Shown here in pieces: positions 9,653 through 29,401 of a stretch of DNA of 64,000 nt. Source of the stretch: a virus. Lineage: Duplodnaviria > Heunggongvirae > Uroviricota > Caudoviricetes. Under the pieces are notes generated by a model that saw nothing but the letters and a program-made list of their open reading frames with translations, had not been told where the DNA came from and ran no database searches. The stretch lies in the IMG/VR virus record IMGVR_UViG_2537561935_000012; one strand, 5' to 3'. The position numbers were made by a program, and so were the translations under genes. Position 1 is the first letter of the stretch. Each line of letters begins with the position of its first letter.

Positions 9653-10452
9653 TTCGCCTCCTGCGGCGGTTCTGGTAGCGGCATCCAGTACAAGGCGTTC
9701 CCTAACCACGATAAAGTGCCGTCGCTCAACTCCACGTATTCCCCTTGTACCTGTCCTGCCATATACTCGCCGTGCTTTGAATAAATTAAAATCCAATCAT
9801 CTTGAGCGGGCATTCGCTCACTACAGCTTATCCAACCATCCGGAGTTACCGGATAGTTGCCATTCACAAGGTCAGCTCGAACATATAGCGTGTCATCATG
9901 GTGCTGATTGTGGCTGCACCACGTTAATTCGCTTAACTCGCCATCTTCTGGCCATACTCCAGCTGTTTGCAGCCAGATATGGGCTGGCGCATCTTGGCAA
10001 GGTGTATTAACTGGCAACTTGTAAGTTTGGCTTACAGGTTGGCTACCCTGAAGCATGGCAGCGTGGCAGGCATCCTCAACGTTCTTCACTGCATCTGCGC
10101 AGTAGTTATAGCGATTGCATTCCACTAATTTCTGCTTGAGGTTTTCAATTGCTAACTCGATTTCATCCGGCACTACCGGCTCTGGTTGGATAGTGACGTT
10201 GGCAAAGGCAGCACGCAAACCGGCCTTAATTTCCTCTACTTCATCAGCGCCTAGCGATGAATCTGACAATGCGTGATGGAATGCGTAAGCCATGTCGTCG
10301 TTTACTGCAACCGGTTCTGCTTCCAGCGATGCCAGAGCAATTCGTGCCAGTTCTTCCGCTTCTTCTGCTGGCAGTACAACGTTGCTACCAGGTCCGTATG
10401 TTTCGCGCCACTGCTTGATTGTCAGCAGTCGCTCTTTGGTAATAGTGATCAT
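9649..10452 (-). CDS. hypothetical protein with DUF551-like C-terminal domain
   Basis: 267 aa; C-terminal W..D.LP pattern common in prophage proteins. Confidence 0.5.
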   Translation of the reverse strand: MITITKERLLTIKQWRETYGPGSNVVLPAEEAEELARIALASLEAEPVAVNDDMAYAFHHALSDSSLGADEVEEIKAGLRAAFANVTIQPEPVVPDEIELAIENLKQKLVECNRYNYCADAVKNVEDACHAAMLQGSQPVSQTYKLPVNTPCQDAPAHIWLQTAGVWPEDGELSELTWCSHNQHHDDTLYVRADLVNGNYPVTPDGWISCSERMPAQDDWILIYSKHGEYMAGQVQGEYVELSDGTLSWLGNALYWMPLPEPPQEAK

Positions 10453-13774: not shown

Positions 13775-14280
13775 TATTGTTGATGGAGAAGCGCGTTTTC
13801 ATACTCCCTGACCATTAACGTAAGCACGCCGTGCCTCCTGAAAACACGCGCCACTTCAATCTTATCTTCCAGCGCGAACGCGATTTTACTTAGACCAATT
13901 TTCTTAAGGAGATCAATCTTTGCTGGGCCGTCATTTCTGTCATCGGTGGCAGGACGCATAGATAGCAAAGGCTCAGCCCCGTTTGTTACGTACTTCCGCA
14001 GCCAGGCTCGTGTTTTATCCCTTGCGATCTCACAGCGCCCGGTTACAAACCAGACCGTGTAAACGTTAAATAACTGGCGCACAATATCAATAACTGGAGT
14101 TATGGGAGTATCAGTGTCACAGGCGAGATTAAACTCGTTCCAGTCCTTTGTTAATGCACCTTTACCTGGTGGCGGAAGCAAATGCAGTCTGTCTTCAGTT
14201 GCCTCTGATATTGTTCCATCAATATCAACTATGACGATATACGGACGTTCCTGGTGTGCGTGTTTATTGAAAATACTCAA
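13774..14280 (-). CDS. HAD-superfamily phosphatase-like protein
   Basis: 168 aa; VIVDIDGT (DxDGT) motif. Confidence 0.5.
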   Translation of the reverse strand: MSIFNKHAHQERPYIVIVDIDGTISEATEDRLHLLPPPGKGALTKDWNEFNLACDTDTPITPVIDIVRQLFNVYTVWFVTGRCEIARDKTRAWLRKYVTNGAEPLLSMRPATDDRNDGPAKIDLLKKIGLSKIAFALEDKIEVARVFRRHGVLTLMVREYENALLHQQ

Positions 14281-15916: not shown

Positions 15917-16618
15917 TTATTCTGATTCTCGCTCAAAAAATGAGCTGATAAGGGGAAGCCAATCCTCTGACACTTCGCGAGGTCGCGGTTTGCCGTGGAA
16001 AAAGATTATTCGGCAGTCTTTTGGTAATGCCCCATTCCCCCTGGAGTAACGCGCGCTCGCATATTTTGAACCAGGTTCCACAACATCGGCCTTGTAACTT
16101 ACAAACCATCCTGGATACAGATCCTGAAATGCTGGTGTATCATCGCCCATAACCTTTCGTAAGAACCCCTGGTCACCCCAGCACTCAGTAGTGACACAAC
16201 GAGAAATCCAACCTTCCGGATCTTGCCAGAATGAACTCCAGATATGCGCTTTAACACTATTTGGTATCCACAGGGCACCGCTGCCACGATATTGTGGATG
16301 GTAAAAATCCCTAAGCATGGTGAAGCTGGTTGGTGGATGCTCTAGGATTGGGCGTATATCACCGGCAATAACCGTGTCCAAATCCAGATAGAACAGATCA
16401 TCGGTTATATCCGGTCGGAACAACTCGATTTTCGCCCACCAGCCACGGCACTTTTGCCACTGGTTGATCAATGGGACAACTTTGACGCCAGGTACATGTA
16501 AACGCTTCAGGTCTGTCAGGCAAATAATTTCATAGCCTTTTGGCAGTTGATTAACCAGCCACTGCACATCGGAAGCGTTATAGTCACCACCAGAGCGAAA
16601 AACTAAAGCAATCTTCAT
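15917..16618 (-). CDS. hypothetical protein, possible GT-A-like glycosyltransferase
   Basis: 233 aa; YLDLD (DxD-like) motif; weak. Confidence 0.35.
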
Positions 16619-17307
16619 GCTGCACCATCACCTTTCACTTTCATCAATGTCAGGTTTCCGCAAAATACGGCACCAGTGTCGATATACTGCTGATTCCAGA
16701 ATGTCTTCGGGCTTTTCACCGGAGTGTGACCAAAGATAAAACGATCTGCGCCCGAAATTTCGCCACCAATATCATCCATCGAATCACTGATACGCTCGCG
16801 CGCCCAGACAACGTTGAAAAGCGGCACCTCCTTACCGAATTGGTATTCATTATCCGGATAGTCGGCATGGGCTATAACGATAGTTTCTTGCCCCGTGTTC
16901 AACTCAATGATATAGGGCAGACGCTTTACCAGCTCCACCAGCGCCCAGGCTAATATTTCCTGATCAGTGTCCAGCATGAAGAACCATTGTCCGCCATTCA
17001 TTAGCCAGTTATTCACGTTGCCATCTGGACTTAACGCATCAATCATCAGCCGCTCATGGTTCCCCATCACTGCCCTGAACCAGGGCATCTGCAATAGTTC
17101 CAGACATTCGACATTTTCAGTACCGCGATCGATAAGGTCGCCGACCGATATCAGTAAATCCTGCGCCGGGTCAAAATCCACACGATGGAGTTCGGACATC
17201 AGTCTGGTGTAGCAACCATGCAGATCACCAACAACCCAGACATTCCTGTATTTGGTACCGTCGATACGGTGATAAATTGTGGGTGCCATCATGTATTCTT
17301 CAGCCAT
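16615..17307 (-). CDS. ppp: Ser/Thr protein phosphatase (lambda-PPase family)
   Basis: 230 aa; GDLHG, GDLIDRG and GNHE motifs. Confidence 0.85.
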
Positions 17308-17915
17308 TCTTTAAGAGTCATCTGCGGAATACCTCCCATTTTCCCGCATGAAACAACGTCAATCTGTTCACGCGCAGACTGGAATAACAAAGGCAGGTGA
17401 CTTAGATTTTTTGGCGTGCTGCCGGAGTGAACGCGTAGTTCTTGCGTAGCGTCAACGCCCACCAGAGCTACATGTTTGAATCCGATATGGAAAGCCAGGG
17501 TCAGAGCACCATATGCACTATTGCCGCTGGCAATTTCATTCTCATCTTCGCAAAGGCCGAAATGTGCGGACCAGCGCCACGCCCACCACTCGGGAGAATT
17601 CGTATTTTTTGGCTCCATGCCGCGTTCAGCCACACGACGGAAGCACAGAACGCCATCTCTGACTTCACGTTCTTTAACATCGGGTAGTGCCATGCAATAA
17701 CAAACACCACGGCGACGGCGGCCACGACCAACGCGCCGCATATTGTCTGGCGATGGATCAAGTGTGAAAAAATAAGAAGCGCGGTTCAGCCAGTCGATGG
17801 CCCCATTGACCGCTATAATCGGCACTCCGCGCGGCGCAACAAAGTTTGCGGCGCTTGGGCCACTGCCGACGATAATAACGCGATCACTGCCTCTAAATTT
17901 ATTCTTGGGAAACAT
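17289..17915 (-). CDS. hypothetical Rossmann-like protein (GSGPS motif)
   Basis: 208 aa; VIIVGSGPS...IIAVN; paralog of the next ORF. Confidence 0.5.
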
Positions 17916-18442
17916 TGAATTGCACTGCTCCTACTTGCATTCAAAATATGTAAATCTGCGTGTTTTTTGCGGGTATCCAGGAACTGCTGTTGCCATTTTG
18001 AAATAGACACCTGCGTTGGATTCCGTAGTGCTTGAGGGTGCGCGCCATGCCAATGAAGGCCGTTTTGCAGAGAACAGTCATAGCCGACTAATACCACTAC
18101 TTCAGCCCCTGATTCAGCAGCCAGACTGATAGCCTGCGCGCCGCTATTTACCCCTTCCGCCGGTCCACAATATCTCCTGTACTCCAACGAAAATGATTTC
18201 GCCGCCGCCAGGTTGGCTGTCACTTTGCGGAATCTCCCTCCCGGTATGGTGGATCCGTATTGCTTCCACCATGACAAATCACCGGCGTATAAGGCATAAA
18301 TGTCATCGAACATCTGCCAGGAATTGTTAACCGCGATGATTGAACAGCCAGTTTTTTCTATAGCAGCACAGTCCTCACGAGTGAGTGACGGTCCGCTACC
18401 GACACAAAAAACAGTCCTAGTCGCCCTGGGTGGTATGTTCAT
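17813..18442 (-). CDS. hypothetical Rossmann-like protein, paralog of previous
   Basis: VFCVGSGPSL...IIAVNNSW; start set at internal Met by alignment with paralog; about 100-nt overlap. Confidence 0.45.
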   Translation of the reverse strand: MNIPPRATRTVFCVGSGPSLTREDCAAIEKTGCSIIAVNNSWQMFDDIYALYAGDLSWWKQYGSTIPGGRFRKVTANLAAAKSFSLEYRRYCGPAEGVNSGAQAISLAAESGAEVVVLVGYDCSLQNGLHWHGAHPQALRNPTQVSISKWQQQFLDTRKKHADLHILNASRSSAIQCFPRINLEAVIALLSSAVAQAPQTLLRRAECRL

Positions 18443-18638
18443 TCTCAGCTGCAAATTCAGCCTCCAGGCGAGCATTCATTTCAGCGATTACAGAGTCCAC
18501 TACAGCATCTGTTTCCTGTTCATTACGCGGCATGATCGATGCCAGCGATTCATAATTAGCCTTGGATGACACGACTATTCTCCCGATGTTAATGTGCGCT
18601 ATATCAAATGGCGCATATGTACTAATTAATTTATTATT

Positions 18639-21216: not shown

Positions 21217-24363
<3,147 letters not shown>

Positions 24364-24364
24364 G

Positions 24365-24388
24365 AAAAGCCCGGCGTTCGGGCTTTTC
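24365..24388 (+). terminator. rho-independent terminator
   Basis: aaaagcccggcgttcgggctttt hairpin after the spike gene. Confidence 0.6.
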
Positions 24389-24409
24389 TGTTATGACGGG
24401 TTCAATTTT

Positions 24410-25408
24410 TTATCCGTTACCGCGCGACGGTTTCTGCGTGATAAACGTCTCAAGCATCTTTTCCGCAATTGCCGACCAGGTGTGACACTGGACCTTTTCA
24501 GCATTTTTCACGCGATCAACGCGAGCAATAACCTCATCCCAATCAATCCGCGACTTGATAACCATATGGTTCACCAAAGCCAGGCGATCTGGCGGAAGGC
24601 AATCGGGAGGCGTTAATACCAACGCCCCGCACATTGCCGCCTCAAGAACAGTTAATCCAAGGCTTTCGGGATGCGTAACGATAAAAACGTCACTCTTACG
24701 CAATTCAGCTGCAAATTCGGTTGCTGGCACCGGCGTCCGCCTGTATGGAGTTACCGAAATATTCCCCGGATCAATGGTAACCAATCCGTCATCAGTCAAC
24801 GTTCTGGCCTCATACGGAACGGTCAGACGCTGAAGGTTCATAAGGATACTTAAGGAGTGATCAAAACCACTAACATCAAATGCAGCGTGGTCTACAAAAA
24901 TACGCAGAACATCGTCCGTTTTGGTTTCCAGATGGAACAGCTCCTGATTCGCTGCCCATCCAACATGTTTGTTAAAGCGATTATGACGTTCTAACCGACC
25001 GGGATTATCCAGGTACCGCCAGGTATCATCGCGGACAGTAAAAGTAATATCGACTGGTGCCGAATCCAGCATAGAACCGTCATATACCTGGGCTACCCAT
25101 CCAGAGAATCGGCGACACAGTTGCATGCCTATTTCCCTGGGTACCGTAGTAAAATACCTCAATCCTGGTGCCAAAATGGCCTTCGCAGAACATGCTGTCG
25201 CAGCAGTCAACACAGCTTCAACATAATCCTCGGGGCTTTCGACGCCAGGGGAATATGGACGATGGTATTGCAATGTAACCCCTGCCTCACTAAAGGCGCA
25301 GGCCAGGTTATAAGACCACATTTCCGTATATGTTTTCACATCACTGATGGCTGCAAATTTTCGCCCAATGATCAGGATGTTCATCGGCTTTTCCTCATTC
25401 CATTGCAT
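24410..25408 (-). CDS. GT-B glycosyltransferase-like protein
   Basis: 332 aa; ESLGLTVLEAAMCGALVL (E-x7-E-like motif); start overlaps ban stop. Confidence 0.55.
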   Translation of the reverse strand: MQWNEEKPMNILIIGRKFAAISDVKTYTEMWSYNLACAFSEAGVTLQYHRPYSPGVESPEDYVEAVLTAATACSAKAILAPGLRYFTTVPREIGMQLCRRFSGWVAQVYDGSMLDSAPVDITFTVRDDTWRYLDNPGRLERHNRFNKHVGWAANQELFHLETKTDDVLRIFVDHAAFDVSGFDHSLSILMNLQRLTVPYEARTLTDDGLVTIDPGNISVTPYRRTPVPATEFAAELRKSDVFIVTHPESLGLTVLEAAMCGALVLTPPDCLPPDRLALVNHMVIKSRIDWDEVIARVDRVKNAEKVQCHTWSAIAEKMLETFITQKPSRGNG

Positions 25409-26778
25409 TAATAATCCTCTTGCCAGTCAGCACCGGCATAGTTATCAAACCGTGAGTATTGGCCGTTAAAAGCCAATCTCACCGTGCCAATTGGGCCATT
25501 TCGTTGCTTTCCGATAATTACCTCGGCAATGCCCTTCATTTCGCTATCCGGGTGATAAACTTCGTCGCGATACAGAAACATAATCAGGTCTGCGTCCTGC
25601 TCAATTGCTCCTGATTCACGTAAATCTGAATTTACCGGTCGTTTGTCCGCACGCTGTTCAAGCGATCGATTAAGTTGTGACAATGCCACCACCGGTACTT
25701 GTAATTCCTTCGCCAACGCCTTCAGTGAGCGAGAAATCTCGGCAATTTCCAGCGTTCGGTTATCTTGCAGCTCGGGGACGCGCATAAGTTGCAGGTAGTC
25801 GATCATAATCATGCTCAAACCACCATTTTCTTTATAAACACGACGAGCGCGGGAACGTAGCTCTGTCGGCGTCAGGGCGCTTGAGTCATCAATAAAAATA
25901 TTCTGCTTGTCCAACAGAATACCCATTGCGCCAGAAACCCGCGCCCAATCCTCGTCGTTAAGTTGCCCTGTCCGAATACGAGTCTGATCAACGCGTGCAA
26001 GAGAAGCCAGTGAGCGCATCATCAGCTGGTGGCTCGGCATCTCAAGGCTAAAAACCAATACGGGCTTATCGTTACGAACTGCGGCATTTTCGACGAGATT
26101 CATCGCAAACGTGGTCTTCCCCATAGATGGGCGGGCGGCGACAATGATGAGATCGGACGGCTGAAGCCCTGCCGTCTTCTTATTGAGATCGGTAAATCCC
26201 GTATCAAGCCCCGTTACACCATCATGTGGTCGCTGAAACAACTCTTCTATGCGAGATACCGTTGCATCGAGAATGCTGGCGATATCTTTTGGACCACTAC
26301 CGCTCTTTTGTCGTTTTTCAGCTATTTCAAAAACGCGGCGCTCGGCCATATCCAGCAATTCATTGCTGCCCCTGCCATCCTGCGCATATCCAGCTTCGGC
26401 TATTTCATTTGCGACGGAAATCATTTCACGAACAACCGCGCGTTCACGAACAATATCCGCATAAGCACAAATATTTGCCGCGCTGGGCGTGTTCTTTGAC
26501 ATCTCCGCAAGGTACGCAAAACCACCGGCGCGTTCTAATTTACCGTTCTGTTCAAGTGCTTCAGCAAGTGTTATCAAATCAATCGGTTTGCCATGACTTA
26601 ATAACCTCTCCATCTCACTGAAAATTTCACGATGAGCACTGGTATAAAAATCATCAGCAACTATACGATCTGCAACTTCATCCCAGCGGCAGTTATCAAG
26701 CATTAAGCCACCAAGTACAGCTTGTTCTGCACTAAGGGAATTTGGCATGGATTCAAGAGGGGATGCAGACATTAGCAC
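25408..26778 (-). CDS. ban: DnaB-type replicative helicase (Ban)
   Basis: 456 aa; Walker A GKTTFAMN. Confidence 0.9.
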   Translation of the reverse strand: MLMSASPLESMPNSLSAEQAVLGGLMLDNCRWDEVADRIVADDFYTSAHREIFSEMERLLSHGKPIDLITLAEALEQNGKLERAGGFAYLAEMSKNTPSAANICAYADIVRERAVVREMISVANEIAEAGYAQDGRGSNELLDMAERRVFEIAEKRQKSGSGPKDIASILDATVSRIEELFQRPHDGVTGLDTGFTDLNKKTAGLQPSDLIIVAARPSMGKTTFAMNLVENAAVRNDKPVLVFSLEMPSHQLMMRSLASLARVDQTRIRTGQLNDEDWARVSGAMGILLDKQNIFIDDSSALTPTELRSRARRVYKENGGLSMIMIDYLQLMRVPELQDNRTLEIAEISRSLKALAKELQVPVVALSQLNRSLEQRADKRPVNSDLRESGAIEQDADLIMFLYRDEVYHPDSEMKGIAEVIIGKQRNGPIGTVRLAFNGQYSRFDNYAGADWQEDY

Positions 26779-27058: not shown

Positions 27059-27134
27059 TGGTGGCCCCTACCGGACTTGAACCGGTGACCGTGCGATTAT
27101 GAGTCGCCAGCTCTAACCACTGAGCTAAAGGGCC
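27059..27134 (-). tRNA. tRNA-Ile2/Met-like, anticodon CAU
   Basis: 76-nt cloverleaf; loop CTCATAA; GGTTCAAGTCC T-arm; encoded CCA; close to E. coli ileX. Confidence 0.85.
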
Positions 27135-27137
27135 GGA

Positions 27138-27245
27138 TTACTGTTTCCTGAGTGCTTCTATGACGCCAGCAATACCGCCTACAACTATGCCAGCAATGAC
27201 AACGAGAACAATTGGATACTTGTCAGCAAAATCCCAGAAGCCCAT
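27138..27245 (-). CDS. small membrane protein, 35 aa (TciC-like, candidate)
   Basis: MGFWDFADKYPIVLVVIAGIVVGG...; TGATG overlap with upstream ORF. Confidence 0.3.
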   Translation of the reverse strand: MGFWDFADKYPIVLVVIAGIVVGGIAGVIEALRKQ

Positions 27246-27409
27246 CACTGATCCTTAGAAGCTGTTTTTAATATCGGCCATACCAATGTTACAGCTACTG
27301 CTACCAACGCCCCGTCGGATAAAACCGACAGGATTGTGCTGGTGAAATCCACCAGCACAGATAGCACGAGAAAAACCAAAGCCAGAATTAGACGTGCTTT
27401 TATAACCAT
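27245..27409 (-). CDS. small membrane protein, 54 aa (TciB-like, candidate)
   Basis: hydrophobic ORF coupled to the TerB-like gene. Confidence 0.3.
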   Translation of the reverse strand: MVIKARLILALVFLVLSVLVDFTSTILSVLSDGALVAVAVTLVWPILKTASKDQ

Positions 27410-27834
27410 CAGATATACTGTTCCAGTGGCAATTGAAGAGCCTGGGCAATTTTCTTCAATTGCTCCTGCTCTTCTGCCCCAATGCCATCCTGGTCAGCAA
27501 TATCAATGCATAGGCACAGAACATCTACCGCATCATTAGTTCCAGACACGTCAGCCAGTTCACGTAAAGCCTGGGCATTCGCTCGGCGCGGCGAGGCTTC
27601 ATATTGAGCGCGAATATTGGCGCTCATCTGGGCAATTTCACCGGAGAACGGCGCAAAGGCAGGAAGTGCTGCAATGGTTTTTTCCAATACTGCAATTTCT
27701 TTCGCATCGCAGGTGCCGTCAGAGTATGCAATGGAATATGCGCCCCAGACAGTCGCTTCCACCGCATCACGGTTTTCCATCTTCTTGACTCCGCCAGCCG
27801 CTTTGCGGAATTTCTTTTTGAGAATGCCGAGCAT
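27409..27834 (-). CDS. tciA: TerB-like domain protein (TciA-like)
   Basis: TerB-like pattern; true start may be the internal Met at 27780. Confidence 0.55.
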   Translation of the reverse strand: MLGILKKKFRKAAGGVKKMENRDAVEATVWGAYSIAYSDGTCDAKEIAVLEKTIAALPAFAPFSGEIAQMSANIRAQYEASPRRANAQALRELADVSGTNDAVDVLCLCIDIADQDGIGAEEQEQLKKIAQALQLPLEQYI

Positions 27835-28565
27835 TTATTAACCTCATTACTGGTTGGGAAATAAGGTTGCGGTGCCGGGTGCTTCCCGGTGTCCTTTAGC
27901 TGGTTATCCACCGTGGACGGGGAAATAAGGAGAAATAATGGACAGATATAACCATTTCCCCGCGTGCGCTTAGCCGCATTCACCGCAACGGAAAGAGCAT
28001 TCCTGGTGGACCTGTAGATTGGGATATGAACCCGTTACAGGAGAATGCTCTTACCTGTTACGTGCTCCGTTTCGTGGAGCTAACGGCGGGGGATCGGGCC
28101 GCACCAGACTGGACTTATTTCAGCGTTATGCTCATGCCAGAGAATCAAACTGTGATGGTCGGTGCTGAACTCCGACACAGGGTTGTAGCAAGCCCCGCAA
28201 AGCGCGCACTACTGTAGTTGCGGCACATCAGCCTGTGCATTCACCACAATGTTGAGAACACTGGTTGTCACGCTGCAACGCAACATTTATTCGTAGATTG
28301 GGATATGACCCCGTTACGCCAGTGTTCTCAACGTTGTAGTGCCGGTTACGGTTCCGGCCAGGCCTCTTCCTCAACGGGGTGTTCTCCATACGGACTACCG
28401 TTTATTGGTCGTTCCTGCGGTTTATGTTGTGAAGCCAGATGCTTATCTTCTGGTTGCTTCAAAGAGCTGCACTTCATCACAACGGTAAGGGTACTTCGTA
28501 GGGATTCGAACCCTCTGCCAAGCTCGGCGATCTCCGACGTCGCAAAATACCCTTACCTGTTGTGC

Positions 28566-28641
28566 TGGTGCCGATTAACGGACTCGAACCGCTGACATCC
28601 TGCTTACAAGGCAGGCGCTCTACCAACTGAGCTAAACCGGC
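28566..28641 (-). tRNA. tRNA-Thr, anticodon UGU
   Basis: 76 nt; D-arm GCTCAGTTGGTAGAGC; loop CTTGTAA; encoded CCA. Confidence 0.85.
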
Positions 28642-28643
28642 AT

Positions 28644-28719
28644 TGGCGATGGTGGATGGATTTGAACCATCGACCCGTTGATTAACAGTCAACCGCTCTA
28701 ACCGCTGAGCTACACCATC
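28644..28719 (-). tRNA. tRNA-Asn, anticodon GUU
   Basis: 76 nt; loop CTGTTAA; T-arm GGTTCAAATCC; encoded CCA; 2 nt from tRNA-Thr. Confidence 0.85.
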
Positions 28720-29384
28720 ACTTGCCGGGTACGTCTCCGGCGAGGGCTTCCACCTCCGTATGCTTTTCGGCGCACCGCGCCCTGGCTGCAATTCGGTAAC
28801 AGGGGATGCACAACCCTGGCTTCCAGCGTGATTAGCGCCTTCAGCATGACGGGATATACCCGTAAATTCGTGGAACTGTACCCAAAGTGCTGTTAAGCAC
28901 CGCTGTTACGCTGAAAAGAAAACGCAACAGGAAAGGACGCTGACCAACAGATGGCCCCTTCTCGTTCATCTGGTTAATCACACCAGCGCCCTTACCTGTT
29001 GTGCCTCCCCGTTCCCTAATACACAGACGGGGACACTCTGCGGTCGATTTTTTGACGGGGGACGACTCATACCCCGTGGCATCTGGCTTCTTAGGCCGCT
29101 ACCATCATCAGATCATCGTTTGCATTTACTTTAATGGTCAGTTTCTAAACCGCCGCAAAGTCGCTAACCATGACGAAAACCCTGAAAAAAACGCCCACCC
29201 GAAGATGGGCAAACTGGAAGCTCGTAACGCACTTCGGCGTTGCCACTTAGGCGCATGGTCAACCTGGCAACTCGGTGTTTTGTCTGGGAGGACTAGGCCC
29301 AGCCATGCTTACCGCCGCGCCTGTCGCGGCTAACAGCTAAATCGCTCTATAAATCACGATTCATTGAGGCGATATTACACTAAT

Positions 29385-29401
29385 AAATTTATTAGAGCAA
29401 T
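29385..29401. promoter_or_regulatory. C1 operator, perfect 17/17 match
   Basis: aaatttattagagcaat overlapping the dmt stop, at the head of the tRNA-tci-ban transcription unit. Confidence 0.75.

Follow-up and report, generated by a model that had tools for sequence, protein, structure and literature searches.

The phage P1 gene dbn encodes a predicted GT-B glycosyltransferase and appears to belong to a mobile phage glycosylation cassette

The window analysed here is a stretch of 64,000 nucleotides from the IMG/VR virus record IMGVR_UViG_2537561935_000012, and the gene in question is an open reading frame (ORF) of 332 amino acids, counted from its first ATG, on the minus strand at positions 24410-25408. 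The ORF corresponds to gene dbn of phage P1, which directly follows ban, the gene of a DnaB-like replicative helicase (25408-26778, minus strand; ORF and P1 annotation). Its product, Dbn, is predicted to be a glycosyltransferase of the GT-B fold. In other phages the gene is accompanied by homologues of three further P1 genes, pmgO, pmgP and pmgQ, and Dbn appears to be a member of a mobile four-gene phage glycosylation cassette together with PmgO, PmgP and PmgQ.

The dbn locus

Between positions 14000 and 30000 the window and P1 form a single colinear alignment of 16 kb with 99.1% identity, by which the window can be classed as a P1-type (Punavirus) genome. The ORF matches dbn of P1 (NC_005856, 72659-73657) over 999 of 999 bases with 99.6% nucleotide identity, and its homologues in P7 and RCS47 with 97.5% and 97.4% DNA identity, respectively. 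In P1, P7 and RCS47 the gene has the same location, after ban and before tail gene 5. By near-identity and conserved position the ORF is therefore dbn, and P1 Dbn (YP_006544.1), P7 Glt and the RCS47 protein represent the same gene without any substantive difference. The P1 record describes the product as 'function unknown, possible glycosyltransferase', the P7 record lists the gene as glt with a 'putative glycosyltransferase' product, and RefSeq names the RCS47 copy a 'glycosyltransferase family 4 protein'. These public records hold a predicted function only, and none of them ties the gene to pmgO, pmgP or pmgQ. The original prediction, which was made from the sequence of the window alone, had placed the ORF correctly. 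Its proposal of a glycosyltransferase was right as well, but it coincides with what the public records already state for P1 dbn, P7 glt and the RCS47 gene and adds nothing to the P1 annotation of 2004. The gene itself will not surprise a specialist; what is contributed here is its cassette context.

As had also been predicted, dbn is the last gene of an operon of tRNA genes, tci genes and ban. Upstream of ban, on the same minus strand, this transcription unit contains a tRNA(CAT) gene (27059-27134), the three small ORFs tciC, tciB and tciA (about 27138-27834; ORFs and P1 annotation), a tRNA-Thr gene (28566-28641) and a tRNA-Asn gene (28644-28719), all three tRNAs being detected by both ARAGORN and Rfam; the part from tRNA(CAT) to tRNA-Asn spans 27059-28719. 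The promoters of the ban operon are covered by Oban a/b (29374-29401), a bivalent operator of the C1 repressor that was found by consensus search and is also annotated in P1. It is an overlapping operator pair with 0 and 2 mismatches, one of the two sites being a perfect consensus match, and the same search yielded 10 C1 operator-like sites in the window against 0.35 expected. At the other end, dbn is the final gene on its strand ahead of a hairpin (24363-24389; RNA folding) that lies between dbn and the convergent tail gene 5. The hairpin has a free energy of -17.6 kcal/mol (z -3.7; 0 of 200 shuffled sequences as stable) and lies between an A-run and a U-run. It is likely a bidirectional intrinsic terminator closing the operon. 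The P1 record additionally predicts two sigma-70 promoters for dbn, both inside ban. One of these is the sole promoter-like site in a scan of the region, a weak result as the scan gave fewer sites than shuffled controls.

The junction between ban and dbn is tight. The ban gene ends in GAG GAT TAT TAA, and an A of this stop codon is the A of the first dbn ATG (25408-25406), giving a TAATG overlap (25406-25410, minus strand) that is present in 70 of the 80 IMG/VR contigs that constitute our P1-like sample, with TGATG in 2 more. However, dbn has two in-frame ATG codons, the one at 25408 and that of Met9 at 25384 (25382-25384, minus strand), each preceded by a GAGGA Shine-Dalgarno sequence at suitable spacing; for Met9 this lies at 25392-25396. 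Nearly all homologues from phages other than P1 begin at the Met9 position (MKILIIG..., in an alignment of 18 homologues), and residues 1-9 of Dbn are coil of low confidence in an AlphaFold2 model. Moreover, in 8 of the 80 P1-like contigs an ORF of 101 amino acids (PHROG 12809, function unknown) is inserted between ban and dbn, for example in L078 at 9699-10004 and likewise in L079-L082 and L084-L086. In those 8 contigs dbn starts with the Met9 ATG, and this start codon overlaps the inserted ORF in the form ATGA. The conserved Dbn protein probably starts at Met9. What is conserved is the tight packing of dbn against whatever gene precedes it; coupling to the helicase gene itself is not conserved, because of the inserted ORF. 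The original prediction of a start at the ban stop codon, with translational coupling, thus stands as far as the overlap exists, but its helicase coupling does not extend to the conserved gene, and its choice of start probably does not either.

Fold, motif and family of Dbn

The AlphaFold2 model of Dbn, built with 18 homologues, has a mean predicted local distance difference test (pLDDT) value of 89.3 and a predicted template modelling score of 0.86. It consists of two alternating strand-helix domains, both Rossmann-like, with a cleft between them, which is the arrangement of GT-B glycosyltransferases. The structure-based homology search that had been suggested along with the original prediction was run with Foldseek against the PDB, and almost all of the top 50 matches are GT-B glycosyltransferases, with GT4 enzymes leading. 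The first is sucrose-phosphate synthase (6kih, E 1e-9), followed by GlgM, PimB', BshA, the GT4 enzyme BA1558 and WaaG-type enzymes.

Within the C-terminal domain, an EX7E motif of the GT4 type is formed by E248 and E256. The motif region, ESLGLTVLEAAMCGALVL, comprises residues 248-265 (24614-24667, minus strand), lies in the part of the protein that is matched by Pfam family Glycos_transf_1 (PF00534), and is included in a family signature, F-x-V-T-H-x-E-S-x-G-x4-E. Residues H246, E248, G251, E256 and G261 are invariant in alignments of 18 close and 51 distant homologues, and the pattern T-H-x-E-[ST]-x-G-x4-E occurs in 138 of 167 retrieved family sequences. The Pfam match itself covers residues 229-315 only (87 residues) and scores 25.0 bits (E 1.5e-5) where the gathering cut-off is 26.4 bits; the precomputed annotation of the 99%-identical cluster P0001 in the database does list PF00534. 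Judged by eye from the alignments, the position after the first strand of the C-terminal domain, where GT4 enzymes usually have the Arg/Lys that binds the donor diphosphate, is taken in Dbn by D173-H174, which is invariant in the alignment of 51 sequences and nearly so in that of 18. Other searches returned little: NCBIfam gave sub-threshold matches only, the PADLOC defence families gave none at E <= 10, and Dbn alone, searched by sequence against the PDB, had no significant match. In PHROG, Dbn belongs to family 2518, function unknown.

The relatives of Dbn form a small, separate family, since a profile search of 1.84 billion cluster representatives retrieved only 377 proteins at E <= 1e-3. 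A scan of one genome per bacterial species with a subfamily alignment found no bacterial genome, and the same scan with a subfamily of 530-amino-acid proteins found three contigs of metagenome-assembled genomes (MAGs) and one P1-like plasmid only. The family has invariant motifs of its own (GWAAD, IDH and THxES) and, as far as can be judged from sequence, is distinct from mainstream GT4 and almost absent from bacterial species genomes. Compared with the retaining GT-B enzymes of CAZy family GT4, such as WaaG, PimA/PimB', BshA and sucrose-phosphate synthase, Dbn is compact, with about 320 amino acids, and stays below the Pfam threshold. Dbn is predicted to be soluble and to lack a membrane segment, because no 19-residue window reaches the usual Kyte-Doolittle threshold of 1.6 (the maximum is 1.53, and for PmgO, PmgP and PmgQ at most 1.44). 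Altogether, the model, the structural matches and the invariant EX7E glutamates agree with the GT4-like GT-B enzyme that had been proposed at the outset, with a Pfam score just under threshold. Dbn would be a soluble, cytoplasmic glycosyltransferase with two Rossmann domains, of the retaining GT4 type, and it is likely to be catalytically active. Its donor is probably a host nucleotide-sugar, since P1 has no annotated sugar-activation genes.

Several kinds of fusion architecture were observed in the family (P0098, P0108, P0111/P0120/P0134/P0149/P0162, P0129 and P0136/P0158), namely tandem Dbn, Dbn with an S-adenosylmethionine (SAM) methyltransferase, Dbn with an uncharacterised C-terminal domain of about 200 amino acids and Dbn with an alpha/beta-hydrolase-like region. 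Some members have low-complexity N-termini rich in Pro/Ala or Glu, which suggests an origin in eukaryotic viruses.

Association of dbn with pmgO, pmgP and pmgQ

A first scan of IMG/VR with Dbn returned P1-like loci only and was repeated with an alignment of distant members. Around the closer homologues outside P1 (48-59% identity), the partners of dbn are homologues of P1 pmgO, pmgP and pmgQ. In the isolated Escherichia phage EP_H11 (L164; 111 kb) the genes are contiguous in the order pmgO-pmgP-dbn-pmgQ, with a gap of 30 nt before pmgQ. The same contiguous order is found in the lambdoid contig L175, directly upstream of the terminase gene, and a second lambdoid contig, L004, has pmgO-pmgP-dbn-pmgQ with a gene for 189 amino acids between pmgP and dbn, again directly upstream of terminase. 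Contig L171 has the four genes in the order pmgP-dbn-pmgQ-pmgO. The linkage is looser in a 95-kb Citrobacter element (L003) and the related L005, where pmgO-pmgP-pmgQ lies about 5-7 kb upstream of dbn, and in L095, where pmgP and pmgQ lie at the limit of the retrieved locus, about 9 kb upstream. In L003 (6806-8001) and L005 (6860-8004), dbn is overlapped by genes of PHROG 8514 and PHROG 15291 (functions unknown), not by ban.

The association extends to distant environmental viruses. In 9 of 9 such loci, with a Dbn homologue of about 31% identity, a PmgQ homologue is located downstream, at a distance ranging from overlap to about 0.7 kb, and a second PmgQ paralogue is often present. The families also occur in natural fusions: P0089 joins a PmgO-like part (E 8e-24) to a Dbn-like part (E 5e-32), an ORF of L096 joins PmgQ-like to PmgO-like parts, and P0108 joins a Dbn-like part to a SAM methyltransferase. 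In L093, a separate methyltransferase gene directly precedes the Dbn homologue. The four families are thus linked on unrelated phage backbones (L164, L175, L171, L004, L003, L005, L095 and the distant loci), and it is quite probable that Dbn functions together with PmgO, PmgP and PmgQ. The annotated records of EP_H11 and of the Stenotrophomonas jumbo phage RAS14 list hypothetical proteins only, and no description of a cassette of dbn with pmgO, pmgP and pmgQ was found in the literature searched.

The link to replication genes that was drawn initially is weakened by these neighbourhoods, as dbn homologues elsewhere are located with pmgO, pmgP and pmgQ and not with a DnaB-type helicase gene. The association of dbn with ban seems to have come about by chance through the gene order of P1, or through a rearrangement in the P1 lineage, and to be no clue to function. 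An accessory role for Dbn with the helicase was considered and rejected, since only in P1-like genomes is the gene linked to ban, and in some of these the link is broken.

Its place behind a replicative helicase gene would also suit an enzyme that, with its partners, glycosylates phage DNA as a protection against restriction. Like Dbn, the alpha- and beta-glucosyltransferases of T4 and the arabinosyl-5-hydroxycytosine transferases are phage-encoded GT-B enzymes among replication genes, and in L093 the cassette is located between UvsX/UvsY and a helicase and a clamp-loader-like gene. However, these enzymes are structurally no closer to Dbn than generic GT4 enzymes: ordinary GT4 enzymes outrank both T4 alpha-glucosyltransferase and the HY126 glycosyltransferase. 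Attachment of sugar to DNA requires a hydroxylated or hydroxymethylated base made via a thymidylate-synthase homologue, and no such pathway is annotated in the P1 regions examined, although no scan of the whole window with a ThyA profile was made. Ordinary restriction enzymes classically cut the DNA of P1. Deletion mutants have no anti-restriction phenotype, the same genes turn up both in lambdoid prophages and in a capsule-type locus of a bacterium (see below), and four transferases with a methyltransferase exceed what DNA decoration usually needs. Modification of DNA is therefore considered highly improbable.

Similarly, the operon of P1 could point to an RNA or a small molecule. It encodes tRNA-Asn(GUU), which is a queuosine tRNA, and a eukaryotic GT4-like enzyme mannosylates queuosine. 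Several structural matches of Dbn act on small acceptors, namely BshA (malate), a tetrahydrobiopterin glucosyltransferase, sucrose-phosphate synthase, GlgM and SenB. Dbn would then modify queuosine in the tRNAs of the operon, a metabolite or a second messenger of a defence system; alternatively, it would be a catalytically dead, glycosyltransferase-like protein that serves Ban structurally or as a regulator. The lack of a PADLOC match and of a known phenotype would fit such roles. On the other hand, a conserved cassette of several transferases, together with the fusions, argues for stepwise assembly of a glycan, linkage to ban and the tRNA genes is found only in P1-like genomes, of which 8 of 80 contigs have ban and dbn separated by the 101-amino-acid ORF, and the catalytic-type residues are invariant, which speaks against a dead enzyme. 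These possibilities are regarded as improbable, if less so than modification of DNA.

The split cassette of P1

In the window, the partner genes are located 6 kb from dbn, past the tail genes and on the same minus strand, in the order pmgO-pmgP-ppp-pmgQ. The first, pmgO (17813-18475), encodes an MptE-like protein of PHROG 4603, a family labelled 'alpha-2,3-sialyltransferase', and pmgP (17289-17915) encodes a second MptE-like protein, of PHROG 2111. They are followed by ppp (16615-17307; P1 annotation), the gene of a lambda-type Ser/Thr phosphatase, and by pmgQ (15917-16618), the most constant neighbour of dbn homologues, which encodes a GT8-like glycosyltransferase of predicted GT-A fold with an invariant DxD motif. 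In P1, ppp fills the exact slot that dbn occupies in L004 (7435-8954), L164 (8400-10583) and L175 (421-2584). It appears that a rearrangement swapped the locations of ppp and dbn and thereby split the cassette of P1.

PmgQ is a member of PHROG 1962, 'glycosyltransferase', and no Pfam family was found for it. Among 28 aligned homologues a D-L-D-T (DxD) motif is invariant, and an H-G is seen close to the C-terminus. Its profile matches the GT77/GT8 enzymes AgtA (2.3e-6), GlyE and glycogenin in the PDB, and its AlphaFold2 model (pLDDT 94.4) is matched by AgtA, glycogenin, GlyE, LgtC and WbbM in Foldseek. As the PHROG, the DxD motif, the profile matches and the model agree, PmgQ is classed as a GT8-like, probably retaining enzyme of the GT-A fold. 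PmgO and PmgP are paralogues with weak matches to the Pfam family MptE-like/DUF115, and a search of the PDB with the PmgP profile found nothing. In RefSeq/NCBI, many PmgP homologues carry the name 'norphogenetic protein'. This misspelling is also present in the RefSeq record of P1, in the product of pmgP and in the note on pmgM, and appears to have spread by automatic annotation.

The P1 record annotates an operator, Oppp, upstream of pmgN-pmgQ. Oppp (18616-18632) was not recovered by the search with the C1 consensus, even with 3 mismatches allowed; by eye, the region resembles a C1 operator only if a gap is admitted. Control by C1 may be weaker for the pmgO-pmgQ operon than for the ban operon.

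The acceptor of the cassette

The following course of events could be envisaged. In P1, the split cassette would be expressed from two operons, dbn being the end of the C1-repressed ban operon and pmgO-pmgP-ppp-pmgQ being part of another one annotated as C1-controlled, so that, soon after induction or infection, Dbn, PmgO, PmgP and PmgQ would be produced at the same time. Between them, the four enzymes would build a short hetero-oligosaccharide, and the acceptor carrying it would be dispensable. The acceptor that we prefer is a lipid-linked glycan of the cell envelope, such as the lipopolysaccharide (LPS) core, which would be decorated during lytic growth.

This preference draws on the nearest clearly bacterial homologue of Dbn, which is encoded in a Colwellia MAG and is 40% identical over residues 9-326. 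At about 0.3 kb from its gene lies a gene of the PmgO family (PHROG 4603, E 2e-6; Pfam MptE-like and, weakly, WaaZ_KDO_III), and the locus also contains an ABC-2 transporter pair, a Poly_export protein and a GT1 enzyme. This arrangement is that of an ABC-transporter-dependent polysaccharide system, and such a polysaccharide-export locus mildly favours an envelope glycan as acceptor. The host envelope component that the original prediction had suggested as a possible target thereby gains modest indirect support. The three MAG contigs with the distant 530-amino-acid subfamily have genes for a sugar epimerase/dehydratase, a GT4 enzyme and a sulfotransferase as neighbours.

The same proteins can be read in another way, in which the cassette glycosylates proteins in the cytoplasm, either of the virion or of the host, and thereby alters the virion surface or host physiology. 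This is the main rival explanation. The best solved relatives of PmgQ (AgtA, glycogenin and GlyE) are GT8/GT77 enzymes directed at proteins or protein glycans, and the sole profile match of the Dbn family in the PDB is a glucosyltransferase of Actinobacillus minor (8xsg/8xsh) that acts on proteins or protein-linked glycans. The compact adhesin glycosyltransferases GtfC/Gtf3 are among the Foldseek matches of Dbn, and MptE/DUF115 proteins include flagellin glycosyltransferases. The gene neighbourhood points in the same direction, as the cassette abuts terminase and head genes in the lambdoid contigs L004 and L175 and the pmg genes of P1 are located between tail genes and pmgS. Glycosylated virion proteins are known for some mycobacteriophages and chloroviruses. 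The chlorovirus A064R-type combination of two glycosyltransferases and a methyltransferase and the clusters of mycobacteriophages resemble the cassette in that several transferases, with or without a methyltransferase, are encoded together, compare the fusions P0108 and P0089. However, we know of no glycosylated virion protein of P1. The closest bacterial homologue is found in a polysaccharide-export locus and not in a protein-glycosylation locus, and the P1 genes belong to operons with C1 operators and sigma-70 promoters, not to those with annotated late promoters. Deletions cause no defect in morphogenesis or plating, and the P1 virion proteomics paper does not mention glycosylation (the string 'glycos' is absent from it). 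Altogether, protein glycosylation is considered unlikely, but clearly less so than an RNA, small-molecule or DNA acceptor.

Modification of an envelope glycan is retained as the favoured reading, and several observations weigh against it. At the level of the enzyme, the Glycos_transf_1 score of Dbn is under the gathering cut-off and, by eye, the canonical Arg/Lys phosphate-binding motif of GT4 is not evident in the alignment. Comparison by hhalign of PmgP with WaaZ, Dbn with WaaG and PmgQ with WaaO of E. coli K-12 gave probabilities of only 5-12%. In some environmental phages the cassette is located among genes of DNA recombination and replication. Published knock-downs and deletions of dbn, pmgO, pmgP and pmgQ have no plating phenotype. 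Finally, the ban and pmg operons should be largely silent in lysogens because of the C1 operators that were found (ban) or are annotated in the P1 record (pmg), and repression of both fits poorly with a change of LPS in lysogens, unless the predicted internal promoters are active. A specific kinship of the cassette to the LPS-core enzymes of E. coli was dropped in view of the hhalign probabilities; the NCBIfam match of PmgP to WaaZ (E 0.13) is not significant either.

Weighing these points, an envelope glycan is tentatively taken as the acceptor, with somewhat less than an even chance. The explanation as a whole, i.e., that Dbn does not serve the helicase and is the GT-B member of a mobile cassette that assembles a glycan, preferably on an envelope acceptor, comes near to an even chance without reaching it. 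A more specific form, in which Dbn, PmgO, PmgP and PmgQ constitute an unrecognised, horizontally mobile four-enzyme system, in some cases joined by a methyltransferase, that builds a defined oligosaccharide on the LPS core or a lipid-linked envelope glycan during lytic growth, is possible but doubtful.

The kind of role that is proposed for Dbn is known from the GtrABC systems of prophages, which glucosylate the O-antigen (seroconversion), a phage-encoded modification of LPS sugars that affects adsorption. Gtr works with a GT2 enzyme in the membrane (GtrB), a flippase (GtrA) and a GT-C enzyme in the periplasm (GtrC). In contrast, Dbn, PmgO, PmgP and PmgQ have no predicted membrane segments and their folds are GT-B, GT8-like and MptE-like, so that the cassette is not a GtrABC system. 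The LPS core is the receptor to which P1 adsorbs. If the envelope reading is true, P1 would mask or destroy its own receptor, which would prevent superinfection or keep progeny from being lost on debris. An old report, as cited by others, of an altered LPS composition caused by P1 could be explained in the same way, and P1 would be a ready genetic model for a glycosylation system.

Literature on the function of P1 dbn or of pmgO, pmgP and pmgQ consists of essentiality tables and a mention in a transcriptome study only, and no test of Dbn activity was found in it. In a genome-wide CRISPR interference (CRISPRi) screen of P1, dbn, pmgO, pmgP, ppp and pmgQ were non-essential, and the study cites single-gene deletions with the same result. 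In a preprint from 2025, dbn appears only as one of the 'uncharacterized loci' that are deregulated in an hfq mutant. Four P1 genes that are scattered over the annotation as 'downstream of ban' or 'putative morphogenetic' appear to be one glycosylation module, which recurs in lambdoid prophages, large E. coli phages and environmental T4-like phages. The single-gene knock-outs, which were without effect, may have been unsuited to the question or may have been scored by an unsuitable read-out. A vague annotation is in this way turned into a testable question in a tractable model phage.

Minor features of the ban operon

Two further observations concern the upstream part of the operon. The tRNA gene at 27059-27134 (minus strand) is a tRNA-Met with anticodon CAT according to ARAGORN and a tRNA-Ile2 (CAT, ileX-like) according to the P1 record; the latter reading would need lysidine modification. 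A terminator-like hairpin with a T-run is found at 29192-29214 (minus strand), about 160-180 nt downstream of the ban promoters that C1 controls and within a region that is annotated as 'dicF-like region' in P1. Rfam did not detect DicF at gathering score, and the three tRNAs are its only matches in the operon. To be expressed despite this strong hairpin, the tRNAs, tci, ban and dbn would depend on read-through or on other promoters.

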